From NCBI GenBank assembly GCA_017525475.1, contig JAFXST010000089.1, forward strand, positions 1-61,730: a stretch of 61,730 nucleotides of DNA, read 5' to 3'. This document shows positions 2,875 through 22,299 of the stretch, one piece after another; the stretch's first letter is position 1, and the number at the start of each line of letters is the position of its first letter. This DNA is from Kiritimatiellia bacterium (lineage in GTDB: Bacteria; Verrucomicrobiota; Kiritimatiellia; RFP12; UBA1067). The position numbers were made by a program, and so were the translations under genes. A model generated the notes under the pieces. That model saw only the letters and a list, made by a program, of their open reading frames with translations. It ran no database searches and had not been told where the DNA came from.

Positions 2875-5809
2875 ACAGTTCCGCCAGTTTGCGCTCGGGG
2901 GTTTTGCCCTTGAGGTCGGCCACGGCCGCGATTTCGCGCCCCCCCGCCTTGTAGAATACGGCGCGCCCGCCATGGGCGTCAACGTTGCCGATTCCGTTTT
3001 TCGCGCAGCGGATGCGCAAGGCCGCGAGGCGCACGAACTGTTCCGCTTCGGACGGGAGGGGCCCGAACCGGTCGGCCATTTCGTCTTTGAGACGCTTGAC
3101 CTCGCGGAGGTCTTGCGCCTCGGCGAAGCGCTTGAGCATCGACAGCCGCTGGCCTTCGTCTTCGATGTATTCGTACGGTATCGCCGCCTCGATAAAGTCG
3201 AGGTTGAGGTGCACCTCCACCGTTTCGCGCACTTTCTCGCCTTTCATCATGGCGATGGTGCGTTTCAGGAGCTGGCAGTAGAGCGTAAAGCCGACGGTGG
3301 CGATGTGGCCGGACTGCTTGCTCCCGAGGAGATTGCCCGCGCCGCGCAGTTCCAGATCGCGCACGGCCAGATTGAAGCCGCTCCCGAGGCCGCCGTGGCG
3401 CTTGAGCGCCGCGAGCCGCTCGCGCGCGTCGGAATCGACCAGCCCCTCGCCCGGGAGCAAAAAGTAGGCGTAGCCTTGCTTGGCGCTCCGCCCGACGCGC
3501 CCGCGCAGCTGGTAGAGTTCCGCGAGCCCCAGGCGTTCGGCGTGGTCCACGATGATGGTGTTGGCCCGGGGGATGTCGATGCCCGATTCGACGATGGTGG
3601 TCGAAAGGAGAATATCGGCCTTTCCCTCTTCGAACATGCGCATTTTGCCGGCGAGCGTGCGCGAATCCATTTGGCCGTGCGCGATCACGATGCGGGCGTC
3701 GGGCAACAGGCGCTGCAGGTCGCGCGCGGTCTTGCCGATGGTGGAAACGCGGTTGTGGAGGTAGAACACCTGTCCGCCGCCCGCGAGTTCCCTGGTGATG
3801 GCGCTTTTGACGAGATCGTCGGCGGCCTCCGCGACTTTGGTCTCCACCGCCACGCGTTCGCGCGGGGGCGAGCGCAGGAGCGAGAGGTCGCGCGCGCCGG
3901 TCATCGAGAGGTAGAGCGTGCGCGGGATGGGCGTGGCCGACATGGTGAGCACGTCCGCCGTGGCGCGCAGCGTCTTCAGGAACTCCTTGTGCCGCACGCC
4001 GAAGCGCTGTTCTTCGTCGATGATGATGAGCCCCAGATCGCGGAAGGCGATCTTGCCCGAAAGGATCGCGTGGGTGCCGATCACGATATCGCACGCGCCC
4101 GAGGCGAGGCGCTTGAAGGTGCCCTCGTGCGTGGCGGCGCCCTGGAAGCGCGATACCGACTCGATCCGCACGGGCGTGCCGTCGAAGCGGCTGGTGAACG
4201 TCTCGAAATGCTGTTCGGCCAGCACGGTGGTGGGCGCGAGCACCGCCGTCTGCTTGCCGTTCATGGCGGCGATATAGGCCGCGCGCATCGCCACCTCGGT
4301 CTTGCCGTAGCCCGCGTCGCCGCAGACGAGCCGGTCCATCGGCCGCGTTGCCGCCATATCCGCCTTGACGGCCGCGATGGCGGCAAGCTGGTCGGGCGTT
4401 TCCTCGTAGGGGAAGGCCGCCTCGAACGCCGCGAGTCCTTCGAGACCCTCCACCTTGCAGGCGAATCCGGGCACGATCTCGCGCCGCGCCTGCACCGACA
4501 GGAGCTGGGCGGCCAGGTCGCGCACGGCCTGTTCGGCGTCGGCTTTGTCGCGGTTCCAGCGCTTGCCGTCGAGGCGATGGACTTTTACCTCCATGCCTTT
4601 CACGCCCACGTAGCGCGACAGCAAATGCGCATGTTGGGCCGGCACGTGCAGCTTGGCGCCGTCGGCGTATTCGATGGTGAACACCTCCACCTTGGCGCCG
4701 TTGCGGTCGATGAAGTGCGAGCCGATGTATTTGCCTACGCCATGATCCACGTGCACCACGTATTCGCCCGGCTCGAGCTCGTCGAAGTCCTCGATGCGCC
4801 GCCCGGTGCTGCCCGAAGGGGCGCGGTGTTTGCGCGTTCGGGAGGCGTGCTTGGCGAACACCCGGTCGGCCTTGGTCACCACCGTCAGCCCCGGGATTTC
4901 GAACCCGCCCGACAGATCGTCGATCTGCACCACCCGGTTGCCGTGCGCCTTGGCCGCCTCGAGATGGCGCGCGAGCCGTTGGCGCGACGCCTCGAAGAGC
5001 TCCGGGTGGTGCGCTTCGCCGGCGCCCAGCTCCGAAAAGCCCGGCAGCGCCGAGGTCGCGATTTCGAGCGGCTTGAGCGCCATCGGCAAGGCGTATTCGG
5101 CCGCCGAAAAGGCGAGGATCGTCGAATCCGGCGGCAACAGGTCGAAGAGCGAGCCGCGCTCCGCCTCCTGCTCCGGCAACGCTACGGGCATTATCTGGAC
5201 TTCGGCTGCTCGCTCCACCGAAATCTGCGTGGCCGCGTCGAAGAGCCTGAGGCTCTCCAGTTCCTCGCCGAAGAACTCGGCCCGGGCCGGCAGTTCTTCG
5301 CCCGGCGACCATACGTCCAAAATGCCGCCGCGCACCGAGAATTCGCCTTCTTTGGCCACTTGGGCCGTGCGCTGATAGCCGAGCTTGGCGAGGAGTCCCA
5401 AGTCGAGACGCATGCCGGGCTTAAGCGTCAGCGGCTGGACGCCGCTTTTGGGGATGCCGCTCGCCAAGGCGGCGAAGGGAGATACGATCACGAGCGGATA
5501 GGGGCGTTCGGCCCACGCCTTGAGCGCCGCCGCCGTTTTGAGCCGCGCGCCCAGCGAAGCGCGCTCGCCCGGCACGAGCGGCGGAAACTCGAGGATCCGC
5601 TTTTCGCCGGTGGCGGCGAGGATGCGCAAATCGTCCAGCATCCGATCGGCTTCGGGGATGCCGGCGCAAACCGCCAAGGTTACGCGATTGGCGGCGCAAA
5701 GCGTAAGAAAAGCGCCGGCCGCGCCCGACATGGGCGCAACGTTCCACGCCCCGCCGCGCCGGAGGGCGGGGGGTAGGCGGGACGCGAAAAACTTTATCGC
5801 CGCTTTCAT
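2840..5809 (-). CDS. mfd: Transcription-repair coupling factor Mfd
   Basis: 989-aa ORF with VVHVDHGVGKY, helicase motifs GDAGYGKTEVA and IIDEEQRFG, and a TRCF-type C-terminus. Its 3' end overlaps the rlmB 3' end convergently (2840-2874). Confidence 0.9.
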   Translation of the reverse strand: MKAAIKFFASRLPPALRRGGAWNVAPMSGAAGAFLTLCAANRVTLAVCAGIPEADRMLDDLRILAATGEKRILEFPPLVPGERASLGARLKTAAALKAWAERPYPLVIVSPFAALASGIPKSGVQPLTLKPGMRLDLGLLAKLGYQRTAQVAKEGEFSVRGGILDVWSPGEELPARAEFFGEELESLRLFDAATQISVERAAEVQIMPVALPEQEAERGSLFDLLPPDSTILAFSAAEYALPMALKPLEIATSALPGFSELGAGEAHHPELFEASRQRLARHLEAAKAHGNRVVQIDDLSGGFEIPGLTVVTKADRVFAKHASRTRKHRAPSGSTGRRIEDFDELEPGEYVVHVDHGVGKYIGSHFIDRNGAKVEVFTIEYADGAKLHVPAQHAHLLSRYVGVKGMEVKVHRLDGKRWNRDKADAEQAVRDLAAQLLSVQARREIVPGFACKVEGLEGLAAFEAAFPYEETPDQLAAIAAVKADMAATRPMDRLVCGDAGYGKTEVAMRAAYIAAMNGKQTAVLAPTTVLAEQHFETFTSRFDGTPVRIESVSRFQGAATHEGTFKRLASGACDIVIGTHAILSGKIAFRDLGLIIIDEEQRFGVRHKEFLKTLRATADVLTMSATPIPRTLYLSMTGARDLSLLRSPPRERVAVETKVAEAADDLVKSAITRELAGGGQVFYLHNRVSTIGKTARDLQRLLPDARIVIAHGQMDSRTLAGKMRMFEEGKADILLSTTIVESGIDIPRANTIIVDHAERLGLAELYQLRGRVGRSAKQGYAYFLLPGEGLVDSDARERLAALKRHGGLGSGFNLAVRDLELRGAGNLLGSKQSGHIATVGFTLYCQLLKRTIAMMKGEKVRETVEVHLNLDFIEAAIPYEYIEDEGQRLSMLKRFAEAQDLREVKRLKDEMADRFGPLPSEAEQFVRLAALRIRCAKNGIGNVDAHGGRAVFYKAGGREIAAVADLKGKTPERKLAELFTAAGAALRKA

Positions 5810-6962: not shown

Positions 6963-8723
6963 ATGACAACTGGCAAGATTGTGGCGGTCAACGGCAACAT
7001 GATCACCGTCCGGTTCGAGGGTTCCGTGGCCCAGAACGAAGTGGGCTACGCCATTCTCGGCAACAAGCGCCTGATGGCCGAAATCGTCCGCGTGCGCGGG
7101 CAGAACTGCGATATGCAGGTGTTCGACGACACCACCGACCTCGCCGTGGGCGACCAGGTGGAGTTCACCGGCGAACTGCTGGCCGCGGAACTGGGTCCGG
7201 GCATGCTCGCGCAGGTTTACGACGGCCTCCAGAACCCGCTCGCGGAGCTTGCGCAGGAAGCGGCCAAGATCAGCAAGGACGCCGAATTCTTCCTGCAGCG
7301 CGGCATGTATCTGCCGGGGCTGCCGCGTAACAAAAAGTGGGACTTCCACCCCACGGCCAAAGTGGGCGACAAGGTGGCGGCGGGCGAAGCGCTCGGCTGG
7401 GTCACCGAGGGCATCTTCGACAACCAGACGATGCCGGGCCACAAGATTATGGTGCCGTTCGCGCTTAGGGGCGTCTACACCATCAAGGCGCTCGCTCCCG
7501 CGGGCGACTACACGGTCACCGAGGATATCGCCACGCTCGTCGACGCCGAAGGCCGCGAGACCAAGGTGCAGATGATGCAGCGTTGGCCGGTCAAGGTGCC
7601 GATCAAGTGCTTTGCCGAGCGGCTCGAACCCACCGAAACTCTCGAGACCACGGTGCGCACCATCGACACGTTCTTCCCCGTGGCCGTGGGCGGCACCTAC
7701 TGCATCCCCGGGCCGTTCGGCGCGGGCAAAACGGTGCTGCAGCAGACGACGGCGCGCTACGCCAAGGTGGATATCGTGATTTCGGCCGCCTGCGGCGAAC
7801 GCGCGGGCGAAGTGGTGGAAACCTTGAAGGAGTTCCCCGAGATCGTCGACCCCAAGACGGGCCAGTCGCTGATGAAGCGCACCATCATCATCTGCAACAC
7901 CTCGTCGATGCCGGTCGCCTCGCGCGAAGCTTCGGTGTACACGGCGGTGACGCTGGCGGAATACTTCCGGCAAATGGGGCTCAACGTGCTGGTGCTCGCC
8001 GACTCCACGTCGCGCTGGGCGCAGGCCATGCGCGAGCTCTCCGGCCGACTCGAAGAGATCCCCGGCGAAGAAGCGTTCCCCGCCTACCTCGAAAGCCGCA
8101 TCGCCGCGTTCTACGAGCGCGCCGGTCGCGTGCGCCTCAAAGACGGCACCTGCGGCTCGGTCACGATCGGCGGCACGGTGTCGCCCGCGGGCGGCAACTT
8201 CGACGAGCCGGTCACGCAGGCCACGCTCAAGGTGGTGGGCGGCTTCCACGGCCTCTCCCGCGCGCGCTCCGACGCGCGCCGGTATCCCGCCATCGACCCG
8301 CTCGACAGCTGGAGCCACTACAATTCGGTCATCGACCAGGATCGCGTCGAGCGCGCCCGCGCCATTCTGCGCAAGGGCAACGAAGTGGGCCAGATGATGA
8401 AGGTGGTGGGCGAAGAGGGCACCTCGCTCGCCGACTTCACCACCTACCTCAAGGCCGAGTTCCTCGACGCCGTGTATCTGCAGCAGAACGCGTTCAGCGA
8501 GTCCGACGCGACCACGCCCGTGGAGCGCCAGCAGATCATGTTCGACGTGGTGGAGAAGGTGCTCAATACCGACTACCGCTTCGAAGACAAGGATTCTACG
8601 CGCAAGTTCTTCATGGACCTGCAGCAAACGTTCATCGACTGGAACGACAAGGCCCGCAACTCGCCGGAGTTCGAAACCCAGAAGGCGGCGCTCCTCCGCA
8701 AAATCGACGAAGCAAAGGCATAA
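6963..8723 (+). CDS. ntpA: V/A-type ATP synthase catalytic subunit A
   Basis: AGGAG at 6952-6956. 586 aa with Walker A GPFGAGKT and typical V-type A-subunit length and layout. Confidence 0.9.
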   Translation: MTTGKIVAVNGNMITVRFEGSVAQNEVGYAILGNKRLMAEIVRVRGQNCDMQVFDDTTDLAVGDQVEFTGELLAAELGPGMLAQVYDGLQNPLAELAQEAAKISKDAEFFLQRGMYLPGLPRNKKWDFHPTAKVGDKVAAGEALGWVTEGIFDNQTMPGHKIMVPFALRGVYTIKALAPAGDYTVTEDIATLVDAEGRETKVQMMQRWPVKVPIKCFAERLEPTETLETTVRTIDTFFPVAVGGTYCIPGPFGAGKTVLQQTTARYAKVDIVISAACGERAGEVVETLKEFPEIVDPKTGQSLMKRTIIICNTSSMPVASREASVYTAVTLAEYFRQMGLNVLVLADSTSRWAQAMRELSGRLEEIPGEEAFPAYLESRIAAFYERAGRVRLKDGTCGSVTIGGTVSPAGGNFDEPVTQATLKVVGGFHGLSRARSDARRYPAIDPLDSWSHYNSVIDQDRVERARAILRKGNEVGQMMKVVGEEGTSLADFTTYLKAEFLDAVYLQQNAFSESDATTPVERQQIMFDVVEKVLNTDYRFEDKDSTRKFFMDLQQTFIDWNDKARNSPEFETQKAALLRKIDEAKA

Positions 8724-10344: not shown

Positions 10345-11756
10345 GCAGTTTGGCCAAAGCCGGGTGGAAGTTCCTGTTTGGCGGCCAAGGGCTGTCGCTC
10401 CGTACCGGCCGGTATTTTGGCGAATCCATCCTGGTGGGCGCGGTCACCGGCGTGGTGGTGGTGGGCTTCAGGTACTTGATCGGCCTCGCCAAAGATTACA
10501 TTATGGAGGATCTTGGCCACCACCGCTTTTTGACGCATCTCGCCCAGGGGCAGATTTTGAGCCCGGCCAAGTGCCTCGAGGATATCGGCGACTGGCATCG
10601 CTGGCTGATGCTGGTGTTGCCGGCGATCGGCGCGGTGCTGGGGTATCTCCTCATCAAGCTCTTTACCTCGGTGGAGCACGCGCGCGGCACCGGCAGCGCC
10701 ATTTGGGCCTACCACAACGCCAACGGGCACGTACCCGCCGCCGTAATTCCGGTCAAGGGCGTCGCCTCGGTGCTTACGGTGGGCTTTGGCGGCTCGGCCG
10801 GCTACGAAGGCCCGGTCACGCTCATCGGCGCGGCCTGCGGCAGCTCGATCGGGCGGCTCCTCAACCTCACCGTGCGCGGCCGGCGCATTCTGATGGCGGC
10901 TGGCCTCGCGGCCGGCATCTCGGCGCTGTTCCAGGCCCCGCTCGCCGGGGCGATGTTCGGCTTCGAGATTTTCTACTCCTCCTCCGATATCGAGTACGAA
11001 AACATTCTCCCCAGCTTCATCGCCTCGGCGGTCAGCTACTCGATCTTCGCCTGCTTCTACGGGTGGCACCCGCTCTTCGAAATGCCGGCCTGCGGCTACG
11101 AAAACGGCCTAAGGCTCTTCCCGTACTTTATTCTGGCGCTTATCATCACCTATGCGGTCCGGTTCTACATCAGCTTCTACAACGCCACCGAAGCGCGCTT
11201 CAAGGCCCTGAAAATTCCGGGGTTCTGCAAGGTGGCCCTGGGCGGCCTCGCCACCGGCGTCATCGGGTTTTTCATGCCCGATATCCTCGGCTCCAGCTAC
11301 TCGCTCATCGACGCCAGCCTCAAGTGCGGCTACGGCCATGTCTTCGAAGACTATGCGCCGGTGGCGATTATCGGCTTTCTCGCCTTTTTCTTCGTCAAGA
11401 CCGTGGCCACCGCCTTTACCGTAGGCTCGGGCGGCTCGGGCGGCCTCTTCGCCCCGGCGCTCGTCTGCGGCGGCACCCTGGGCGCGGCGGTGGGGCTTAT
11501 CTTCGACCGGCTCCTCCCCGCATCGTTCGGCATCCATCCGGCCGCCTTTGCGCTGGTGGGCATGGCGGGCTTCCTCGCCTCGGCGATCCGCATCCCCATG
11601 ACTTCGATCCTCATCGTGGCCGAAATCTCCGGCAACCATGCGCTCCTCTTGCCGGCCATGTGGGTGTGCGGCATCAGCTTCTGGCTCAACAGCGGCTGGA
11701 GCCTCTACCGTACCCAGCTCCACTGCCGCGAATCCTCCCCCGTCCACCGCGGCTGA
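10341..11756 (+). CDS. ClC-family voltage-gated chloride channel / H+-Cl- antiporter
   Basis: ATGA overlap with the upstream gene. The protein is multi-TM with GFGGSAGYEGP and GSGGSGGLFAPAL selectivity-filter-like motifs. Confidence 0.85.
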   Translation: MSSLAKAGWKFLFGGQGLSLRTGRYFGESILVGAVTGVVVVGFRYLIGLAKDYIMEDLGHHRFLTHLAQGQILSPAKCLEDIGDWHRWLMLVLPAIGAVLGYLLIKLFTSVEHARGTGSAIWAYHNANGHVPAAVIPVKGVASVLTVGFGGSAGYEGPVTLIGAACGSSIGRLLNLTVRGRRILMAAGLAAGISALFQAPLAGAMFGFEIFYSSSDIEYENILPSFIASAVSYSIFACFYGWHPLFEMPACGYENGLRLFPYFILALIITYAVRFYISFYNATEARFKALKIPGFCKVALGGLATGVIGFFMPDILGSSYSLIDASLKCGYGHVFEDYAPVAIIGFLAFFFVKTVATAFTVGSGGSGGLFAPALVCGGTLGAAVGLIFDRLLPASFGIHPAAFALVGMAGFLASAIRIPMTSILIVAEISGNHALLLPAMWVCGISFWLNSGWSLYRTQLHCRESSPVHRG

Positions 11757-11761
11757 GGTTT

Positions 11762-11993
11762 ATAGAACGCAAGTGCCGATCAGGTTGAACGCAAGCCGCT
11801 GGCGCGGCACGCTATAAGAGAGTTTGCATTCCCATGCCTCTGCGTTCCAACTAACCCTCACGTTCCCGAAAAATCCTCGCGGGGGGATGAAATAGGGCGG
11901 TAGAGGGGCCGGAGGAGGCCGGGCGGCGAGGCCGCCAATTTTCGCTTCCTTTGCCTTCAACGCCCGCCAAAGGCCGTTAAACCTTGGCTAAAG
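11762..11993. repeat. Direct repeat copy 1 (about 232 bp) flanking the ATPase cassette
   Basis: The 176-bp core 11807-11982 differs from 13345-13520 at only 4 positions by hand alignment. The looser 5' part carries two GAACGCAAG motifs (11765, 11787). The core contains the inverted partners TTGCATTCC and CTGCGTTCC and a GGCGGC-GAG-GCCGCC hairpin followed by AATTTT (11922-11942). Confidence 0.9.
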
Positions 11994-12038
11994 CCGCCCC
12001 AAAGAGCACTAAAATGCTTGCTTTATCTTAATTACCGC

Positions 12039-12135: not shown

Positions 12136-13293
12136 ATGGATAACTATATAAACCGAGCCTTGGAAGATAGCATTCGCTTGGGCCTTAAGCGCAATCCAGT
12201 GTTGGCGCTTTTGGGGCCTCGGCAATGCGGCAAGTCCACTTTGGTGCGCAAGCTTCGCCAGGAGTTTGCCGATTCTCTCTATCTGGATATGGAGCGCCCC
12301 TCGGATGTCGCCAAGTTGGCGGATCCGGAGTTGTTCTTGTCCCGTTGCCAAGACAAACTCGTCTGCATCGACGAAATTCAGCGGAGGCCAAACTTGTTTC
12401 CGGTCTTGCGCTCGTTGTGCGACGAATGGGGTGACAATGGCCATTTCCTGGTTTTAGGGTCGGCCTCGCGCGATCTCATTCGCCAAAGTTCCGAAACGCT
12501 GGCCGGTCGCATCCGTTACGAACGGCTTACGCCATTTCTTTATGGCGAACTGCCAGATTGCGATTGGCAGCGCTACCTTTATCGCGGAGGTTTCCCTCGT
12601 GCCTATCTTGCGTCTGACGATTCGGCGGCGCACGATTGGCTGGAATCCTTTATTCAAACGTTTCTCGAACGGGATTTGTCGTTCTGGCGCGAGTTTGTGC
12701 CCGAAACCATGCGCCGCCTATGGCGCATGCTGGCGCACGACAATGCGCAGATTGCCAATTTTGCCCGGCTTGCCGGCTCGCTGGGCGTGTCCGACATGAC
12801 GGTGCGGCGCTATCTCGATCTGCTCAAAGAAACATTTATGGTCGATGTAGTAAGCCCGTATTCTGCTAACCTCGGCAAGCGGTTAGTCAAGTCGCCCAAA
12901 GTGTACCTTGGCGATACCGGCATAACCTGTGCGCTGTTGGGTATGGCTTCGTTCGACGATCTCTACTCCAGCCCCGCTTTTGGCGGTTGCTGGGAACAGT
13001 TGGTGTTGGCCAATCTTCGTGGCGCATTTCCGCAGGCCGAAATCTGTTTCTACCGCACTTCCGGCGGTGCCGAAATCGATTTTGTGGTTTCAGGCAATGG
13101 CAAGACCGTGGCCGTGGAGTGCAAGGCATCTACTGTGCCATCTGTTGGCCGCGGAGTCTACGAGTCGCTTGAAGCAATTAGGCCAGATGCAGCTTTTGTG
13201 GTGGCGCCAATCGCCGAGCCCTATCCGCTCAACGATCGCATTACCGCCGTTCCGCTTTCGCACCTGCCAAAGCTATTTGACAACTTGCGCTAA
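12136..13293 (+). CDS. AAA+ ATPase with C-terminal DUF4143-type domain
   Basis: AAGGA RBS. Walker A GPRQCGKST, Walker B VCIDEIQ, and the length and layout of the COG1373 / DUF4143 ATPase family. Confidence 0.85.
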   Translation: MDNYINRALEDSIRLGLKRNPVLALLGPRQCGKSTLVRKLRQEFADSLYLDMERPSDVAKLADPELFLSRCQDKLVCIDEIQRRPNLFPVLRSLCDEWGDNGHFLVLGSASRDLIRQSSETLAGRIRYERLTPFLYGELPDCDWQRYLYRGGFPRAYLASDDSAAHDWLESFIQTFLERDLSFWREFVPETMRRLWRMLAHDNAQIANFARLAGSLGVSDMTVRRYLDLLKETFMVDVVSPYSANLGKRLVKSPKVYLGDTGITCALLGMASFDDLYSSPAFGGCWEQLVLANLRGAFPQAEICFYRTSGGAEIDFVVSGNGKTVAVECKASTVPSVGRGVYESLEAIRPDAAFVVAPIAEPYPLNDRITAVPLSHLPKLFDNLR

Positions 13294-13298
13294 TTATA

Positions 13299-13532
13299 TA
13301 TAGAGAACGCAAGCCGTTTTTGAGGAACGCAAGCGGCTAGCGCCGCACGCTATAAGAGAGCTTGCATTCCCATACCTCTGCGTTCCAACTAACCCTCACG
13401 TTCCCGAAAAATCCTCGCGGGGGGATGAAATAGGGCGGTAGAGGGGCCGGAGGAGGCCGGGCGGCGAGGCCGCCAATTTTCGCCTCATTTGCCTTCAACG
13501 CCCGCCAAAGGCCGTTAAACATTGGCTCAAGC
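13299..13532. repeat. Direct repeat copy 2 (about 232 bp)
   Basis: See copy 1. GAACGCAAG motifs at 13305 and 13325; core at 13345-13520. Confidence 0.9.
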
Positions 13533-14799: not shown

Positions 14800-17700
14800 A
14801 TGAATAAGACATTGACTGGAATAACTGTTGCGCCTCTGACGCGTTTGTTCACGCTGGGGCTGTGCATTTTCGCAATCGGCCATGCCTGGGCGGCGGTAAA
14901 GCCGCTCGCCGTCTGGAATGGGGATTTTGTCGATAACAGCGAACGAGGTGGTTTTACATTTACCATCAATGGGAATGAGCAGCTTGGTGTTGACGGTGTT
15001 AAGATGGGCTCATCAAATGCACTGAAGTTTGATTATGATATTACCGCAACGAGGGTATACAACACAGGAACAAAGGCATATCCGATTTCTATCGTTGCAG
15101 CAATGTCAAACATTGTTGTGACAGCAAGTACACCAGAGTCTACCAGGACATTGTTTTCTATTTCTCAGTTTGCATCATCTGCTGCTAATCAGTCGGTAAA
15201 AGCCAATTTTTATTCTTTTTCGCTTAATCCAAAATCATCAACGGGCTATTATTTAGGTGGTGATGGCAATTTGACCCGTGTGACAGGTACTTCAAGTTAT
15301 GCTCCCGTGAATGTATTTGATAATGCTGATACATGGCACTATATGGCAATGAAGCATAGTGGCAATGTCGGCACTCGGGGATGTGAGATTTCTGCTGGTA
15401 ATAACTTTCGTGAACTGGTTTATGACTCAACGTTGAAGTGGGGCACTAACGATGGATGGGGCTATTGGGGTTTGACGGTTGGTGGCGCCGGCACTGCGAA
15501 CAACAATTGCACAGATGCTGTTGTGCGTTATGTAGCACTAATTCAATCAGATGCTGACACAGACGTCGAAGCGTGGTCATTAAGAAACATGACGCGGGCA
15601 GAGACGCTCACGAGTTCATCAACTTCGTTTACAGGAGGCGACAATGTCGGTGTAAACTTCAACGGTGGCACGATTACGGTCGCGTCCGCACAGACGGCGG
15701 CGGCGCTGTTTGTTCAAGAGTCCACGACGATTGCGATTAATGGTTCAGGAAAAATTACAACAACGGCAAACGGCCCATACCAGGGACCTCTATATATCGC
15801 GGACGGCAAGACGCTGACGGTTACCACGGACAAGGCGACGGAGGCAAATCTGCGTTCCGCTTTTGATGCCTCGCTTGGAACGGGAACGATTACGCTAATA
15901 GATGCTCCAGTATATGGAACTGTTGACCTCTCGAATATTACGTCCTCATTGCCGACAATTGACGGCTACACAATTGTGGCGACAAGTGATGAAAATGGTG
16001 TGCGCATAGTAATGTCTTTAAATGGCGTCAATTACACTGGAACTGTAACAGGCGAAGCGACCTGGGCGGACAAGACGAATATTTCTTCAACGGATACCTG
16101 GGCGAACAGCCCAAGTTCTACGATTACGCTTTGCAATGAGGCCGAGGCATCTTTGACATTTGATGAAGATGTAAACGCCGAGTCGCTTACACTGAATGGC
16201 ACGGGTAAAATAACGCTCAGCCGTGGCAACAATGTCAATGTGCGGATAGGTGACAACACAACGGCAGGCAAGGCTATAATCGTGAATACCGAGGCCGTGC
16301 TTGAGGATTTGGGGCAGGATGCAGCTGTCCGCATAACAGGTTCAAACAAGGCGACCCTAAAAGACTATACAGCATTCCCCGCCGGCAGTACATTGCCTAG
16401 CACAGGAACACTTCGCATGGAAAGCGATACTGTCACGCTGACGGCATTCCCGTGCGCGGGCGTGAATCTTGCGGGAACCGTAGAAGTTGACCAGTCGATT
16501 ACATTGACGGGAGATGGTTTTTATTTGTACGACAACAAGCCTGCCGTGAACATAGAAGGGGGAACGGATTCGTTCTCGAGATTTGTCCTTGGAAACAAAT
16601 CGTCTTACGACAATCCAACTCAAACCGTCACTCAGAACGGCGGATCGATAACAGTAACAGGCACTGCAGAGCCGACAAGCACAAGTGCAACTATGCTCCT
16701 TGGACACTGGCCCTCGACATCCTATCTATATACGCGCGGCGGTACATTTTCAGTTCCCAACGCAGCTGTTCGCATGGGATGGAATGGTGGCGCGACATGG
16801 GAAATCGGTGGAGGAACAGGGACTGCTACGGTAACGGTGCCAGGCATTCTAATCAGTAAGAATGGTACTGCCGGGCGAGGAACGGTGAATGTGGCGGCAA
16901 AAGGAACGCTGAACCTTGGTTCGTACGGTCTTCAGATGCAGTCAAGCGCGGGAACACTGAATCTCTCCGGCGGCACGATCAAGGCGACCACAGACACAAC
17001 CATTGCAAACAACAAGAGTGATGGCACTGTGCTTACGGCGTCAAAGGAGACAACAATAGATACAACAAGCGGCAACGTAACTATCTCCGCGCCGTTGAGT
17101 GGTTCGGGAAGTCTGAATGTGACCGGCGGCGGAACATTGACGATAACCGGAAGCGGAACAGCGTCTGGAGGAACCATCAAAGCGACAGACAGTACAATTG
17201 TCCTTAGCGGAAACGGGGCGAAGCCTGGCGATACGATGTATAGTTTGAAGAAGGCAAGTGGTTCGAGCACAACGGCGAAGCTTGAGATTCGCCCTGGCGA
17301 AGGCAATACGATAACCCTTGCTCCAACGCATATCATCAACTCCACTGATTCTGGAGCGCAAATAATCGTAGGTGCTGGAACGACGAAGATTGCACACACC
17401 CAGACAAACGCGGGATCTGGAACGTTTGGAGGCGCGGTTGTCAAAGTAGAGGACGGGGGTACGCTGGAAGTCAATAACATCAACTGGACGGTTGAAAATG
17501 TAACATACGGCCTTGAAATAGGTGCGTCCAGTAAGTTTGCGGTAAATGCGCTTTCAACAAATTGTCGCCCGATCACGATGGGCGAGGGCGCTACGCTCGA
17601 AGTCTCGAAGGGTAGCAGTTATTCGACAACGGATGGGGCGCTGAAACTGGATTTTAGAAATGGCAATGGCTTTACCGTAAACGGCAATGCTACAATTCAG

Positions 17701-19566
17701 GCGACTGGCGAAGACGCAGAAACGCCTTTCATCAACATGACAGGTTCGGCGGCGCAACCTTTCAATGTCGCAAGTGAAAAAACACTTTCGGTAAATGCCA
17801 ACATCAAAGGAACGTCGGCATTGACGAAAACAGGCGCAGGTAAGCTTGCACTCAATGGCTATGGAGCAGATAGCGGCTACACGTACACCGGCACGACTAC
17901 GGTTAGTGCGGGGACGTTGGAAATCAATGCAACGCAGACTGGCTCGCCATATAGCCTTGTGGCAGGATCAACGCTGAAGTTTGGCACTTACGCGTCCGTG
18001 ACAATGCCGTCCATTATTCTTCCTGCGTCCGGGACGGCGGCGATTGACGTGAGTGCGTTGACGATTGGCGAAAACGGTGTGAAGCTTGTCACGTTTGCGA
18101 CGACGGCGCCGACCCAGGCGGATGTTGACAGCAAGCTGACAGTGACGGGGGGATACGCACTGAAGGTAGAGGATAACGCGCTCAAGGCGTATCCTGCTGT
18201 GGCGCAATATAACGGCAAGGGGTATGAAACCGTCAAGGCGGCGATTGACGCGGCGGTTGCGGACGGGCACACGTATGCCGATGTCACGATTCTCGACGCG
18301 ACGGCGGAGTGCCCGGATGGGTATTATATCGACAACGGCACACTGAAGAAGAAGCCTGCTTCTATAACGGTCGGCGAAAACGTTTATTATTACACTACCA
18401 TACAGGCGGCGGTACAAGATGCTCTTCCCGCGCCGTATGGGAGCCACTCCAACTACGACTATCTCACCATCTACGAAAGCAACACGGCGGTGGCGATGAT
18501 GGATTACACGCTCAAGCTTGCCACCGCGCCCGGCGTGACGGGTGTGACGGTTTCTCTGCCGGTTTCATTTACTACTACCGAATACGCCGTCTCGTCTGTT
18601 TCAGGCGATACTTATACGACGTATTCCGTTTCTGTGAATCCCAAGACTTATCGGTGGAAGAATGCGGCGGCTGGCACGCTTTGGACGACCCCTTCGAATT
18701 GGGAATTCCAAGACAATGAAACGTGGACGAGCGCACAGCGCTATCCGGGCGACGGCACGACGGGCGACTCCGTCGTCGTGACGGGCGATACGTCCATTCA
18801 GCTTGGTAATGCCGTGACGCTCGCTTCGTTGCAGGTGACGGACGGTGCGCTGGCGCTCGCGATTCCGAGCCAAGGAACAGCGACAACCTTGACCGCTTCC
18901 GAGATTACGCTCGGAGCGAACGCCACAATATCTCTTACAGGCGTGACGCTTTCGCAAGATCCTACGAGCGGGGTGGATTTGATGTATGTCAAGGCCACAA
19001 ATTCAGATGGGACCACTACTTACTCCTTGCAGGCGGCCGGAACGGTCGAAGAGGGGGTTGCCAAGATTACCGATGCCACCGCCGAAGTGACGGTTCCGGC
19101 AAACGCCACTGCAATCGAGGCGGCCCCGGCTGTATCCTCGATCAAACTGGCAGATGGATCGGCGATTACGGACAGCGACGTTACCGTAAAGTATAACGGC
19201 ACGACCAACATAACCGGCGCATTTTCCATCTCGGTAGCTGGCGATCAAGTCACTCTTGCCCTCAATGCGAACGGGTCGGTGACCATCAGCGACAAGACGA
19301 TTACGGTGAAGCCGGCAGTGGATACGTCGGCTGATCCGATGACGATGCCGGACGAAACAACAGCGCCGTCGTTCAACATCAAGACGATTCCGGGCCTCTA
19401 TTATGTGGTGAGGTCGGGTACTTCGCCGAACTCGCTTGCCGCCGGTTCGGCCACGCAGGCCACCACCACCACCACTGGCCTTGCGGGTCCGGCGCTGGGT
19501 AACAAGGACACTGTCCGCTACTACAAGATTTCGGTCGGCCGCACCGCCGCCGAAGCCGCGCAGTAA
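14800..19566 (+). CDS. Giant secreted repeat protein: signal peptide, LamG/concanavalin-like N-terminal domain, autotransporter-associated beta-strand repeats, distinct roughly 60-aa C-terminal module
   Basis: 1588-aa ORF with RBS AAAGGAG. Signal peptide LGLCIFAIGHAWA. Repeated GTLxLSGG / TKTGAGKLALNG...TYTGTTTVSAGTLEIN motifs typical of PVC-type autotransporter-associated beta-strand repeat proteins. The C-terminus reads IPGLYYVVRSG...VRYYKISVGRTAAEAAQ. Confidence 0.85.
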   Translation: MNKTLTGITVAPLTRLFTLGLCIFAIGHAWAAVKPLAVWNGDFVDNSERGGFTFTINGNEQLGVDGVKMGSSNALKFDYDITATRVYNTGTKAYPISIVAAMSNIVVTASTPESTRTLFSISQFASSAANQSVKANFYSFSLNPKSSTGYYLGGDGNLTRVTGTSSYAPVNVFDNADTWHYMAMKHSGNVGTRGCEISAGNNFRELVYDSTLKWGTNDGWGYWGLTVGGAGTANNNCTDAVVRYVALIQSDADTDVEAWSLRNMTRAETLTSSSTSFTGGDNVGVNFNGGTITVASAQTAAALFVQESTTIAINGSGKITTTANGPYQGPLYIADGKTLTVTTDKATEANLRSAFDASLGTGTITLIDAPVYGTVDLSNITSSLPTIDGYTIVATSDENGVRIVMSLNGVNYTGTVTGEATWADKTNISSTDTWANSPSSTITLCNEAEASLTFDEDVNAESLTLNGTGKITLSRGNNVNVRIGDNTTAGKAIIVNTEAVLEDLGQDAAVRITGSNKATLKDYTAFPAGSTLPSTGTLRMESDTVTLTAFPCAGVNLAGTVEVDQSITLTGDGFYLYDNKPAVNIEGGTDSFSRFVLGNKSSYDNPTQTVTQNGGSITVTGTAEPTSTSATMLLGHWPSTSYLYTRGGTFSVPNAAVRMGWNGGATWEIGGGTGTATVTVPGILISKNGTAGRGTVNVAAKGTLNLGSYGLQMQSSAGTLNLSGGTIKATTDTTIANNKSDGTVLTASKETTIDTTSGNVTISAPLSGSGSLNVTGGGTLTITGSGTASGGTIKATDSTIVLSGNGAKPGDTMYSLKKASGSSTTAKLEIRPGEGNTITLAPTHIINSTDSGAQIIVGAGTTKIAHTQTNAGSGTFGGAVVKVEDGGTLEVNNINWTVENVTYGLEIGASSKFAVNALSTNCRPITMGEGATLEVSKGSSYSTTDGALKLDFRNGNGFTVNGNATIQATGEDAETPFINMTGSAAQPFNVASEKTLSVNANIKGTSALTKTGAGKLALNGYGADSGYTYTGTTTVSAGTLEINATQTGSPYSLVAGSTLKFGTYASVTMPSIILPASGTAAIDVSALTIGENGVKLVTFATTAPTQADVDSKLTVTGGYALKVEDNALKAYPAVAQYNGKGYETVKAAIDAAVADGHTYADVTILDATAECPDGYYIDNGTLKKKPASITVGENVYYYTTIQAAVQDALPAPYGSHSNYDYLTIYESNTAVAMMDYTLKLATAPGVTGVTVSLPVSFTTTEYAVSSVSGDTYTTYSVSVNPKTYRWKNAAAGTLWTTPSNWEFQDNETWTSAQRYPGDGTTGDSVVVTGDTSIQLGNAVTLASLQVTDGALALAIPSQGTATTLTASEITLGANATISLTGVTLSQDPTSGVDLMYVKATNSDGTTTYSLQAAGTVEEGVAKITDATAEVTVPANATAIEAAPAVSSIKLADGSAITDSDVTVKYNGTTNITGAFSISVAGDQVTLALNANGSVTISDKTITVKPAVDTSADPMTMPDETTAPSFNIKTIPGLYYVVRSGTSPNSLAAGSATQATTTTTGLAGPALGNKDTVRYYKISVGRTAAEAAQ

Positions 19567-19616
19567 CCCAGCCTCCATATCTGGCACACGCAGGGCGGGG
19601 ACCACTCCCCGCCCTG
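19519..19616. repeat. Gene-end-plus-terminator repeat, copy A (functional 3' end of the giant gene)
   Basis: A 33-nt block (19519-19551) and a 30-nt block (GCCTCCATATCTGGCACACGCAGGGCGGGG) are identical to 20863-20895 and 20918-20947. Confidence 0.9.
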
Positions 19617-19622
19617 TGTTTT
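19591..19622 (+). terminator. Rho-independent terminator of the giant gene
   Basis: CAGGGCGGGG (19591-19600), loop ACCACT, CCCCGCCCTG (19607-19616), then TGTTTT. Confidence 0.8.
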
Positions 19623-19808: not shown

Positions 19809-19838
19809 TTGACAAAGGCATGGAGAATATGGTATAAT
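19809..19838 (+). promoter_or_regulatory. Putative promoter of the three-gene mini-cassette
   Basis: TTGACA (19809-19814), an 18-nt spacer ending in TGG, then TATAAT (19833-19838) followed by A. Confidence 0.6.
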
Positions 19839-19847
19839 ATGCGGCAA

Positions 19848-20114
19848 ATGGAACATATTGCAATACTTGGCAATAAAGGCAGATATACTTCGTTTTCGTT
19901 TGGCGGAAAGGAAGTGCGCTTTCTTTCGCCGTCGAATCTTGCGGGGTATCGGCGCGTAACCAAGTGGGACAATGGCTATATCGAGGCGGTGGCGGACTAT
20001 GGAAAGGGCGAGGAAGAGGAATACATCGACTTGATTCCGATTCTCGAGAATCTGTTTATCGAGCCAAAGGAGTTTCTGGCGCCAATCGACAAAGTGGAGG
20101 TGGCAAATGTCTGA
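19848..20114 (+). CDS. Hypothetical small protein (88 aa), possibly translated from a leaderless mRNA
   Basis: The first usable in-frame ATG (19848) lies only about 10 nt after the -10 hexamer, and there is no SD. The 3' end overlaps the next gene. Confidence 0.5.
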   Translation: MEHIAILGNKGRYTSFSFGGKEVRFLSPSNLAGYRRVTKWDNGYIEAVADYGKGEEEEYIDLIPILENLFIEPKEFLAPIDKVEVANV

Positions 20115-20331
20115 TGAGAAAAAATCCGCAATCGCCGACAGCGCCGATTTGATTGTCAACGACTATGCGATAATCCGCAATGGCGACAATTTGCGCTTGG
20201 TCAACTTGCGCACCGGCAATGCGGCGGTAGTGTTGCCGGGCAATGTCGTAAGCGAAACCAGCATGGGCGATATCGAGCTTGGGATAGCGCTCGACTATCT
20301 CAAGAACAATCTGCAATTCCTTGCCGCCTGA
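20107..20331 (+). CDS. Hypothetical small protein (74 aa)
   Basis: GGAGG (20096-20100) lies 6 nt before ATG 20107. The gene overlaps the preceding gene by 8 nt. Confidence 0.55.
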   Translation: MSDEKKSAIADSADLIVNDYAIIRNGDNLRLVNLRTGNAAVVLPGNVVSETSMGDIELGIALDYLKNNLQFLAA

Positions 20332-20333
20332 CC

Positions 20334-20612
20334 ATGCCCAAGTATTACGGATTCAAGGTTTACGGATATTATCTGTACTTTACTTCGCACTGCGTGGTAG
20401 AGGCAATGCACGCCCATGCCAGCGATACTCGATTGTCCGAACGTGGCTCGGCAAAGTTTTTTGTCCGTGCAGACGGCTCTTCGGAGGTTGCCGAGCGAGG
20501 CAGACTGACCGATCGTGAGCTTGTCGGCATTCGCGAGTTTATCCGTTGCAACTACCGGGATATGTATATGCGCTGGTCTGAATATTCCGACCAGGGCTTT
20601 TATCGGGCGTAG
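20334..20612 (+). CDS. DUF4160-like small protein (92 aa)
   Basis: The N-terminus MPKYYGFKVYGYYLYFTS...HAHAS...AKFFV follows the DUF4160 pattern (short beta-hairpin, His-containing segment, then xAKFxL). It starts 2 nt after the previous stop codon. Confidence 0.55.
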   Translation: MPKYYGFKVYGYYLYFTSHCVVEAMHAHASDTRLSERGSAKFFVRADGSSEVAERGRLTDRELVGIREFIRCNYRDMYMRWSEYSDQGFYRA

Positions 20613-20682: not shown

Positions 20683-20862
20683 AGCCTTGCTGCGCATTGC
20701 GCCAGACTTGCGGCATGCCGCCCTAGAGCGGCGTGGCTGAAATGTTTGCTTCTCGATATCCCAATCCACCTTAGCCCGGCGCATGCTCGGATACTTATCA
20801 GGTATAGGGTGATATATACATACCTTAAATCCATTGCCCCGGCTTTCGCAGGCACGGTTCAA

Positions 20863-20960
20863 TACTACAAGATTTCGGTCGGCCGCACCGCCGCCTAAGC
20901 CTCGGTCGAGTAACGACGCCTCCATATCTGGCACACGCAGGGCGGGGCTCACTCCCCGCC
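20863..20960. repeat. Gene-end-plus-terminator repeat, copy B (decayed 3' remnant of a paralogous giant-protein gene)
   Basis: Reads ...APAFAGTVQYYKISVGRTAA*, compared with ...GPALGNKDTVRYYKISVGRTAAEAAQ* in copy A. A TAA replaces the GAA codon, and the terminator stem GGCGGGG/CCCCGCC is retained (20941-20960). Confidence 0.85.
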
Positions 20961-21101
20961 TTGTTGTTTCTTCGCTCCCGGGTGATCTAGATTGCGGGGC
21001 GCAGAGGGTTGGAAGGGGGCGGAAGAGGTAAACGGCAAAGTGGTTTTGGACGGGCGATAGCGGGATTTTGCGGGATTTAGGGTGAAAATTCAAAGTTGTA
21101 C

Positions 21102-21130
21102 TTGAAAAATGAACCCAGGTGTACTATAAT
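21102..21130 (+). promoter_or_regulatory. Putative promoter reading into the repeat-array tract
   Basis: TTGAAA (21102-21107), a 17-nt spacer, then TATAAT (21125-21130) followed by A. Tandem GCGGGATTT x2 (about 21059 and 21069) lies just upstream. Confidence 0.55.
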
Positions 21131-21160
21131 ATGTCTGCATTCAACGAAATGGAGGCGCAG

Positions 21161-21445
21161 ATGATAACTCGAGAATTGGGTCGAATCATTCAGCAGGATG
21201 CCAAATTGTATCTGGCCGGGAACCTGCGGAAGTTTGCGTCGGAAGAGCCGAATGTGGCCGGTACGGCCTTGGTTTACGACGGTGCCGATATCCCGGCGGC
21301 AGACGGCAAGGATACGGCGGTTTTACCAACAAAAGGGGCAAATACGGCCAAGCTTTGGCCAATAGTTACCGCTTCAACTTGCCGGATATTACGCCAAAAG
21401 CGGAAAACACAGTGTCCGGGAGCCAGACAGGGCAGTGTCCGGTAA
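21161..21445 (+). CDS. Questionable small ORF (94 aa)
   Basis: ATG 21161 lies 5 nt after GGAGG (21151-21155). However, the 3' third runs into repeat array 1, and the stop codon is the TAA spacer of the perfect palindrome TGTCCGG-TAA-CCGGACA. No recognisable family. Confidence 0.25.
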   Translation: MITRELGRIIQQDAKLYLAGNLRKFASEEPNVAGTALVYDGADIPAADGKDTAVLPTKGANTAKLWPIVTASTCRILRQKRKTQCPGARQGSVR

Positions 21446-21525
21446 CCGGACAGGGCAGTGTCCGGGAGCCGGACAGTGTAGTGTCCGGGAGCCAGACACT
21501 GCAGTGTACGGCAGCCGGACACCAA
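21411..21525. repeat. Array 1: 5 x 23-bp tandem units, each with the dyad GTGTCCGG-N3-CCGGACAC
   Basis: Unit starts are at 21411, 21434, 21457, 21480 and 21503, exactly 23 bp apart. Units 2 and 3 have perfect 7-bp arms. Confidence 0.9.
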
Positions 21526-21750
21526 CAGAATGGTATCAGAATTGGCAACACTCTCTTTAACACCGATACCGAACAGAAGGCAGAATCGGGTTCGGGTTTA
21601 AAGAAATTGGAGGAAAGTAGGGGGAGAGGGCAGAAAGAAGGGATCGACCAGGTCAAGAGCGAGATTAGACAGGGCGAGTGGGACTCGGTCAAGAACTACC
21701 TCGCCGTGTTCGTCCGCCGCATCCAATCCCGCTTAGGACTGACCGTGTAG

Positions 21751-21860
21751 CATCCCGATGCCTGCGCCTCGCCATCCCGATCCCCGCCCGCCTCCATCCC
21801 GATGACGATGCGCTTTCATCCCGATGCCTGCACCTCGCCATCCCGATGCCTTCGGGTCCG
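21751..21860. repeat. Array 2: 5 x 22-bp direct repeats with invariant core CATCCCGAT
   Basis: Core starts are at 21751, 21773, 21795, 21817 and 21839, exactly 22 bp apart. Units 1 and 4 differ at one position. Confidence 0.9.
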
Positions 21861-21950
21861 GCGAGGATTTGATTTGGGTCCGGACCCGATTTGGATTTGG
21901 TCCCGAGGAAGGGTCTAGTTGCCCTAGGCAACTTGGCCCGTTGCTCTAGG
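21854..21950. repeat. Bridging 22-bp-phased motif pairs (GGGTCCGG / GATTTG units; GTTGCYCTAGG pair; 17-bp palindrome)
   Basis: GGGTCCGG at 21854 and 21876, then GGTCCC at 21899. GATTTG occurs four times. AGTTGCC-CTA-GGCAACT (21917-21933) is a palindrome. GTTGCCCTAGG at 21918 and GTTGCTCTAGG at 21940 are 22 bp apart. Confidence 0.75.
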
Positions 21951-21962
21951 CGCGGCGACTTG

Positions 21963-22116
21963 TTCTCCGTGGAACGCGAGCGACTTGCTCACGGAGACCG
22001 CCAAAGTTCTCCACGGAGACGGCCCAAGTTCTCCACGGTGACCATCGCCGTTCTCCGTGGAGACCATCCGCGTTCTCCGTGGAGAAAATTGGAATCCTCC
22101 ACGGCGATTGGCGCAG
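21963..22116. repeat. Array 3: 7 x 22-bp units with quasi-palindromic core TTCTCC-RY-GGAGAC
   Basis: Unit starts are at 21963, 21985, 22007, 22029, 22051, 22073 and 22095, exactly 22 bp apart. The central dinucleotide alternates GT and AC, so the core occurs in both orientations. Confidence 0.9.
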
Positions 22117-22162: not shown

Positions 22163-22192
22163 TTGACAAATCGGGTCGGAATATGGTATAAT
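22163..22192 (+). promoter_or_regulatory. Putative promoter of tRNA(CAT)
   Basis: TTGACA (22163-22168), an 18-nt spacer ending in TGG, then TATAAT (22187-22192) followed by A. The tRNA starts at 22223. Confidence 0.65.
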
Positions 22193-22222: not shown

Positions 22223-22299
22223 GGACCCGTAGCTCAGTCGGTCAGAGCAGGTGACTCATAATCTCCGGGTCGTGGGTTCAAGTCCCGCCGGGTCCACCA
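22223..22299 (+). tRNA. tRNA with anticodon CAT (elongator Met, or Ile2 read via lysidine); CCA encoded
   Basis: Hand-folded cloverleaf: acceptor GGACCCG/CGGGTCC, D-arm GCTC-AGTCGGTCA-GAGC, anticodon loop CTCATAA, T-arm GTGGG-TTCAAGT-CCCGC. It has a G1-C72 pair and lacks the GGG/CCC anticodon stem, so it is not an initiator tRNA. Confidence 0.9.

Follow-up and report, generated by a model that had tools for sequence, protein, structure and literature searches.

Does a regular row of DNA dyads that lies within an open reading frame (ORF) serve to load a dimeric protein, and if so, which protein and to what end? The question is raised by array A, five tandem 23-bp units in contig JAFXST010000089.1 of a Kiritimatiellia bacterium (assembly GCA_017525475.1), which was analysed over positions 1 to 61,730 and is referred to as the window. 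An initial annotation of this DNA described the units as centromere- or operator-like, that is, as sites for dimers of the ParB/SopB, ribbon-helix-helix (RHH; ParG/omega) or helix-turn-helix (HTH) repressor type. Our results show that array A is a real cis-acting DNA element, far from chance, and that it probably represents the iterons of a lambda-type replication origin situated within an HTH_36 initiator gene, in the part that codes for the linker; the window holds a truncated copy of this gene.

The dyads and the gene that carries them

Tandem Repeats Finder (TRF) placed array A at 21410-21521, with a period of 23, 4.9 copies, 85% matches and a score of 154. The units start at 21411, 21434, 21457, 21480 and 21503 and read exactly as annotated. 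When the window was searched for the dyad GTGTCCGG-N3-CCGGACAC with up to three mismatches, five matches were obtained, all inside the array, and the dyad did not occur elsewhere in the 61.7 kb; the expectation from shuffled sequences was 0.47 matches, and five or more were reached in 0 of 100 shuffles. The same dyad was not found in another promoter, the sign of autoregulation that the initial annotation had proposed to look for. Units 2 and 3 have the perfect 7-bp arms described there, and units 1-5 have 6, 7, 7, 7 and 7 complementary pairs out of 8. The reported extension to 8 bp stood only in part: the outer G/C pair is present in units 4 and 5, each of which has one inner mismatch, and none of the five units is a perfect 8-bp dyad. 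The peptide VSGSQT recurs at every third unit, as had been stated, its only two occurrences in the frame of ORF 21355..21750 being in units 1 and 4, at a distance of 69 bp. None of the window ORFs spanning the array matched a family of Pfam, PHROGs or NCBIfam.

Searches with the translated ORFs gave homologous proteins of 195-258 aa, the C-terminal two-thirds of which match the frame of ORF 21355..21750. The intact relative P0001 (258 aa) consists of an N-terminal winged helix (HTH_36), a disordered linker and a helical C-terminal domain. Its sole Pfam match is to HTH_36 (PF13730; 31.6 bits with a cut-off of 25), and no Rep_3 or similar Pfam match was obtained for it. The N-terminal PF13730 domain was found in the homologues P0001, P0003 and P0007-P0022, and the proteins of loci L008, L009, L010 and L006 also match HTH_36. 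In the AlphaFold2 model, the predicted local distance difference test score (pLDDT) was 81-93 for the winged helix (residues 1-97) and approximately 90 for the helical C-terminal domain (182-258), but it fell below 50 over residues 100-181, the part specified by the array and the sequence that follows; one winged-helix domain was predicted.

Approximately 35 loci (numbered with an L) were gathered by exact-protein look-ups and two collection scans of genome and metagenome contigs. The first scans, with an alignment of close relatives, gave nothing, and the second, with a broader alignment, gave matches. The named genome records are metagenome-assembled genomes of Kiritimatiellae (one from yak cecum), one Gammaproteobacteria contig and one Planctomycetota contig. 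A profile search of 1.84 billion representative proteins yielded 46 clusters at E <= 1e-30 and 151 at E <= 1e-10. There was no relative in a curated phage collection, four weak matches only in a plasmid collection and one distant phage contig (L006) in a viral contig scan, in which TRF did not detect a tandem array. Searches of PDB sequences with P0001 and the family profile gave no meaningful match.

Nearly every related locus has an array of 23-bp period with 2-6 units approximately 318 nt into the gene, and in some 25 relatives from four phyla a dyad array begins at about 310-320 nt, with 2-6 dyads and a period of 15-23 bp. The initial annotation had proposed to check whether copy number varies and whether the arms are conserved, and both proved to be the case. 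L001 has two units, the window, L002 and L003 have five each, L005 has six, and arrays of four units also occur; the change from five units to two drops 69 bp and keeps the frame. The outer bases of the 19-bp core are kept as (G/A)TGT...ACA(C/T), i.e. (G/A)TGTnnnn-N3-nnnnACA(C/T), and the inner arms differ by locus (CCGG, CCGA/TCGG, CCAG/CTGG, CCTC/GAGG, AGCC/GGCT, CGCC/GGCG), the dyad being kept even where the arm sequence changes. Compensatory changes are found already in close relatives, such as TGTCCGA-GAG-TCGGACA in L002 and GTGTCCTC-CTC-GAGGACAC in L004. Over 88 units, 554 of 704 arm cells were complementary, compared with 106-205 when the partner was slid by 1-3 bases. At the variable inner pairs, 174 of 264 were complementary against a shuffle mean of 104 (S.D. 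6), a value reached by 0 of 2000 shuffles. Several arm pairs occur as three or four Watson-Crick forms; pair 6-14, for instance, is C-G 23 times, G-C 18 times and T-A 6 times. This covariation indicates that the dyad is under selection.

The frame in which the DNA is read differs among intact genes. The first base of the core is in codon phase 0 in some of them and in phase 1 in others, and translation of the conserved GATACCGAACAG gives DTEQ (phase 0) in the window clade but PIPNR (phase 2) in L012, L015, L016, L019 and L028. In an alignment of 15 loci, the proteins of which are 35-40% identical, neither CGAAC nor ACACCAACAGAA, which closes the last unit, varies. GC content over the next 45 bp is 0.40 in the window and averages 0.34 in 15 loci, compared with 0.53-0.58 in the flanks, and this AT-rich stretch is followed by the imperfect palindrome CCGATACCGAA...TTCGGGGTCGG. 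The retention of array and following motifs in different reading frames indicates that the constraint is on the DNA and not on the peptide, in agreement with the annotation of a nucleotide repeat rather than a protein repeat.

The inner arms also follow the protein. When the recognition-helix residues after the conserved T-H-L were compared with the arrays, they sorted with the inner arm: SRST (THLSRST) with CCGR, SRAT with CCAG, SRSA with CCTC, and HR.T..[QS]C with (A/C)GCC. In a backbone test, the helix was masked and the rest of the N-terminal domain was clustered. L032 (SRSA) then grouped with the window clade and L034 (SRSA) with the L012 group, L017 (HR.T) with L013 (SRST), and L019 and L021 (HR.T) with L018 (SRAT), showing that the helix classes fall on more than one protein backbone. 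Such a pattern would be expected if the encoded winged helix reads the array. Taken together with the arm covariation, it supports the part of the initial annotation which saw a row of sites for a dimeric DNA-binding protein.

Likeness to the lambda origin and to other replicons

The mechanism that we propose starts from an intact gene, which encodes the N-terminal HTH_36 winged helix, the disordered linker and the helical C-terminal domain, and the linker-coding DNA of which presents, in this order, 4-6 tandem 23-bp dyad units, approximately 45 bp of A-rich/AT-rich sequence and the conserved imperfect palindrome. Each dyad would be bound by an initiator dimer; since the half-sites are 11-12 bp apart, they would lie on roughly one face of the helix. 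Neighbouring dimers may interact and wrap the DNA, as in the lambda O-some, the adjacent AT-rich DNA would open, and a helicase would be recruited through the C-terminal domain.

We regard the units as origin iterons rather than as a centromere or operator because the anatomy is that of the lambda origin inside gene O. The latter contains four iterons and a 38-bp AT-rich sequence (PMC3349717), and O dimers bind the 19-bp iterons to form the O-some, which recruits P-DnaB (PMC3985674). Measured on NC_001416, the four annotated iterons start at +348 nt of gene O (approximately +318 here) and correspond to residues 117-145, immediately after the Phage_rep_O domain (aa 22-115); they are 18-bp sites spaced by 20, 24 and 23 bp and followed by 45 bp at 24% GC. 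Both systems thus have four to six tandem dyad sites of 18-19 bp with a spacing of about 20-24 bp (23 here), placed in the initiator gene after an N-terminal winged helix, encoding the inter-domain linker and followed immediately by an A-rich/AT-rich stretch of some 40 bp. They differ in that the arms are 7-8 bp with a 3-nt spacer here and 6 bp with a 5-nt spacer in lambda. Moreover, no P-like loader gene follows the initiator gene in the Kiritimatiellae loci, where a conserved gene precedes it instead, the protein scores as Pfam HTH_36 and not as Phage_rep_O (PF04492), and the hosts are Kiritimatiellae, where those copies that were seen lie in chromosomes and have often decayed. In a published HHpred analysis, the N-termini of lambda O and DopC are assigned to HTH_36 (PMC5509034), and HTH_36 proteins are present in the replication regions of Stx phages (PMC8951638).

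Gram-positive phages also have origins inside their 'replisome organizer' genes. An example is oriL of SPP1, located in gene 38, where the origin-binding protein binds repeats inside its own gene and an AT-rich unwinding element adjoins them (PMC6316719). Compared by description, SPP1 differs in protein family and hosts, its sites are described as direct repeats, and it has a second origin, oriR. Iteron plasmid origins (RepA/RepE/pi/TrfA; staphylococcal RepA_N) share the tandem initiator repeats at approximately two helical turns beside an AT-rich region. Their repeats are usually direct and intergenic, and the Rep protein often has two winged helices, whereas dyads within a gene and one predicted winged helix were found here. 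A classical iteron plasmid origin (Rep_3/RepA type) was rejected on the basis of these in-gene dyads, the single predicted winged helix and the missing Rep_3 Pfam match.

Genomic context and rival explanations

The more distant relatives lie in replication contexts. In L010, an integrated element of Planctomycetota, the order is a serine recombinase, a divergent pair of cI-like and Cro-like HTH genes, the initiator gene and an overlapping IstB/DnaC-like ATPase gene, and the initiator gene contains an array of 22-bp units, GTGTC-AGAGA-GACAC. The Gammaproteobacteria contig also retains the in-gene array design. A tyrosine integrase is nearby in L009, and a DnaB-like helicase gene follows the initiator gene in the phage contig L006. 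A 37-kb Chondrinema (Bacteroidota) record, deposited as a plasmid, has five copies of TACGG-AAAA-CCGTA with a 15-bp period at +307 nt, followed by AT-rich repeats. In most Kiritimatiellae loci, a conserved partner gene of approximately 219 codons lies 4-6 nt upstream of the initiator gene (e.g. L012 186-920, L007 934-1521 and L032 9361-9996). The partner protein, which has an acidic N-terminal helix and the basic tail 'KLPKFKP...RKGKG', forms at least 24 clusters. In L001, a DUF3987 gene lies upstream of the initiator gene, and the place of the partner gene is taken by a DUF3987 fragment that shares its C-terminal tail.

Several observations weigh against a replication origin. The Kiritimatiellae copies on long contigs (L001, L032) are chromosomal and have no recognisable gene for an integrase, helicase, primase or loader within 10 kb, and terminal overlap revealed no circular ends among the short contigs. 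The copies of L005, L021, L032, L002, L004 and the window are frameshifted or truncated. The partner protein has no Pfam domain, and its confident AlphaFold model (pLDDT 84, predicted template modelling score 0.73) has no match in PDB or BFVD. Foldseek searches of the PDB with the initiator model gave winged-helix matches only, all non-significant (E >= 0.1), the top ones being the N-terminal domains of the RepA_N initiators 4pql, 4pt7 and 5kbj. When the family alignment was compared with lambda O by hhalign, the probability was 0.1%, i.e. no detectable homology; since no sequence similarity to lambda O is detectable, we do not place the family in Phage_rep_O, even though it probably works like ori-lambda/O. 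Finally, the covariation of helix and site could partly reflect the exchange of one contiguous DNA block, as the helix codons are only approximately 150 bp upstream of the array. Exchange of helix codons and array as one block would also imply that the two form a functional unit.

Since the copies are chromosomal and often decayed, no contig is circular and the partner has no match, a non-replicative role has to be considered. The same winged-helix protein might bind the array as an in-gene autoregulatory operator or roadblock, or as a domesticated chromosomal regulator, for example of the giant surface-protein genes. The covariation speaks for co-evolution of protein and site only and not for any particular effect of the binding. 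In addition, the Kiritimatiellae copies lie by strong promoters and giant secreted-protein genes and not by recognisable mobility or replisome genes, and the winged-helix regulators MarR, CodY and IclR are among the weak structural matches. A plain operator, however, needs neither the in-gene position nor the AT-rich block nor the palindrome, which are kept from Kiritimatiellae to Planctomycetota, Gammaproteobacteria and the Bacteroidota plasmid, and distant members of the family belong to classical phage replication modules. We therefore consider a purely regulatory role unlikely. It is also conceivable, if rather improbable, that the retained chromosomal arrays, alone or together with the C-terminal fragment, act as decoys that titrate the initiator in an incompatibility-type exclusion of incoming related elements, which may be likened to the 'inhibition phenotype' of ori-lambda iterons, or that intact copies drive local onion-skin amplification of the giant surface-protein genes next to them. 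The truncated copies may not be dead relics, because the array is kept despite 5' truncation or frameshift and no integrase is present.

The remaining explanations fit the data poorly. Regularly spaced tandem dyads do resemble some centromeres, and type Ib/II/III partition centromeres (parC/parH, omega heptads) share with array A the regular short repeats and the cooperative loading of a small dimeric protein. However, no genes for ParA, ParB or RHH proteins could be found adjacent to the array in the window, L001-L005 or L032, and the array is not in promoter or intergenic DNA but at a fixed position in the coding DNA of an initiator-type gene, with an AT-rich stretch after it and a sequence that tracks the recognition helix encoded by the same gene. 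On these grounds the centromere reading was rejected and the label centromere- or operator-like is not supported, and loading by a ParB/SopB-, ParG/omega- or repressor-type dimer is very unlikely. It is equally hard to believe that the dyads act as single-strand hairpins in mRNA or single-stranded DNA, as an initiation or priming signal or as a translational or stability element. Each unit can fold into a stem of at most 8 bp closed by a 3-nt loop, the pairing is maintained by compensatory changes, and pairing covariation alone cannot separate a hairpin from a symmetric protein site. The mismatches, however, showed no enrichment of wobble-compatible pairs on the mRNA strand (28 on the plus strand, 50 on the minus strand, 39 on neither), which makes an mRNA hairpin in particular unlikely, and the identity of the inner arm bases goes with that of residues in a DNA-recognition helix. 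An Rfam scan of the whole window returned two tRNAs only, with no match at the array. We give hardly any credence to the view that the array is functionless in itself, either an incidental minisatellite or a protein repeat of low complexity. This view would fit the predicted disorder of the encoded peptide and the variation of copy number in close relatives (2, 5 and 6 units), which sometimes breaks the frame. Against it, the period, symmetry, outer TGT/ACA, location within the gene and neighbouring motifs are retained across phyla, among proteins 30-40% identical and independently of the frame.

The window copy, its surroundings and the prospects of the family

The features of the window are collected in the table. 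The DNA is 100% identical to that of L003 and L001 from 21315 onwards and has nothing related upstream, giving a homology breakpoint at approximately 21311-21315. By tblastn, 21316-21747 matches only residues 75-258 of P0001. The first 75 or so codons, which specify the DNA-binding domain, are thus missing, and the HTH_36 domain is absent from the truncated copy; the protein alignment revealed a further internal deletion of 40 residues in the C-terminal domain. No second copy of the initiator gene was found in the window. Because the codons of the DNA-binding domain are lost and the window has no other copy of the gene, array A, located in a low-GC island of what is probably a Kiritimatiellae chromosome, has most likely been left behind by such a replicon and is inactive, unless a gene elsewhere in the genome supplies the initiator in trans. 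The orphan ORF in place of the 5' end has no homologues, and a search with the fused query matched relatives through its C-terminal part only. We rejected the orphan ORF as the N-terminus of the partner gene, the only match being one of 11 residues at chance level.

Features of the window around array A (strand '.', no strand assigned)
Feature	Positions	Strand	Description
Array A	21411..21525	.	Five 23-bp units, each with a 19-bp dyad; proposed initiator-binding iterons
19-bp dyad cores of array A	21412-21430, 21435-21453, 21458-21476, 21481-21499, 21504-21522		
AT-rich, A-rich stretch	21523..21567	.	Directly after the last unit, starting with the invariant junction ACACCAACAGAA; proposed DNA-unwinding element
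Conserved motif CCGATACCGAACAG then ATCGGGTTCGG	21563..21596	.	Together an imperfect palindrome; read in different frames in different members
Remnant of initiator gene, HTH_36-type	21315..21750	+	3' two-thirds; frame of ORF 21355..21750, stop at 21748-21750; N-terminal winged-helix domain missing
Promoter, sigma-70-like, TTGAAA-17-TATAAT	21102..21130	+	Would transcribe across array A; consensus match only
Orphan ORF, 97 aa	21152..21445	+	Another frame; GGAGG 5 nt before ATG; ends inside unit 2; replaced the 5' end of the initiator gene
Array B	21751..21851	.	Five direct repeats CATCCCGATGCC with 22-bp spacing; starts at the stop codon of the initiator gene
Array C	21851..21904	.	Two to three 17-22-bp units with GGGTCCGG/GATTTGG; also in L001
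Array D	21962..22107	.	Approximately six units with 22-bp spacing, dyad TCTCC-GT/AC-GGAGA; ends just upstream of promoter 22163-22192

Truncation at the 5' end is found in the window, in L002 (at about codon 64) and in L004 (just before the array). These three independent events (L002 3229-3400; L004 2200-2250; window 21102-21315) retained the array and everything downstream of it; in two of them, the window and L002, a promoter-like site immediately precedes the breakpoint. Retention of the array alone could reflect either chance decay or selection for array-only copies. In L005 (672-805), L021 (3235-3400) and L032 (10309-10440), a unit number of 6, 4 or 2 shifts the frame and splits or truncates the gene, leaving an ORF for the winged-helix domain alone. 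As 23 is not a multiple of 3, a change in unit number acts as a frame switch, which may be in use or simply a product of decay.

Array A sits in a low-GC island at approximately 12.0-22.3 kb (GC 0.47-0.57, compared with about 0.64 elsewhere), the end of which is marked by a tRNA-Met gene (22223-22299) preceded by the promoter at 22163-22192. Between a terminator at 20937-20964 and this tRNA gene there are a promoter-like site, several overlapping ORFs and the four different arrays A-D. Arrays B and D have no further occurrence in the window. Arrays B, C and D also follow the intact gene in L001 (10589-10990), where B and D have seven copies each and D lies upstream of the promoter of a giant surface-protein gene; array B is found after the gene in L003 and L004 as well. 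In other loci of the family, the two-gene module is preceded or followed by different 21-23-bp arrays.

Near-identical strong promoters of the form TTGAC.-N17/18-TATAAT with an extended -10 element, '(A)TATGGTATAAT' or 'ATATGATATAAT', occur at the module boundaries, often directly after a repeat array (window 22163-22192 and 19809-19838; L001 at about 11048-11077; L002 at about 3233-3262; L032 at about 8030-8058 and 10883-10912). They precede giant surface-protein genes in L001 and L032, two loci in which the initiator module is flanked by giant surface or secreted proteins. In the window, the low-GC island encodes at 14800-19566 a secreted protein of 1588 aa, the beta-strand repeat of which is of the autotransporter type (TIGR02601) and scored 20.1 bits, slightly over the cut-off. 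The last 50 bp or so of its gene and the terminator are duplicated 1.35 kb downstream (19509-19622 and 20853-20969; 87-88% identity), bracketing a three-gene cassette of DUF7724, DUF7723 and DUF4160 (19809-20612) with its own consensus promoter, which looks like an insertion with target duplication. At the left edge of the island, 208-bp direct repeats (11787-11994 and 13325-13532; 96% identity) flank an AAA_14/DUF4143 ATPase gene (12136-13293), and a related ATPase gene adjoins the initiator module in L014. In L032 (8087-9267), the partner and initiator genes are immediately preceded by a MarR-like winged-helix gene and a weakly AbiEii/nucleotidyltransferase-like gene, possibly a type IV toxin-antitoxin pair.

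The design of an origin inside its initiator gene is already known from lambda and is found here in a little-studied group of gut bacteria. For annotation, the results mean that the 23-bp 'protein repeat' of these hypothetical genes is a cis-acting DNA element, which explains the frequent split or truncated ORF calls. For the Kiritimatiellae, which belong to the Planctomycetes-Verrucomicrobia-Chlamydiae group and inhabit gut and rumen, no description of plasmids, phage replicons or genetic tools was found by the searches made. An initiator gene that is compact and contains its own origin, available in several specificity variants, is a candidate for a replicating vector in this group, and the family offers naturally matched pairs of protein and site for studying how winged-helix initiators change their specificity.

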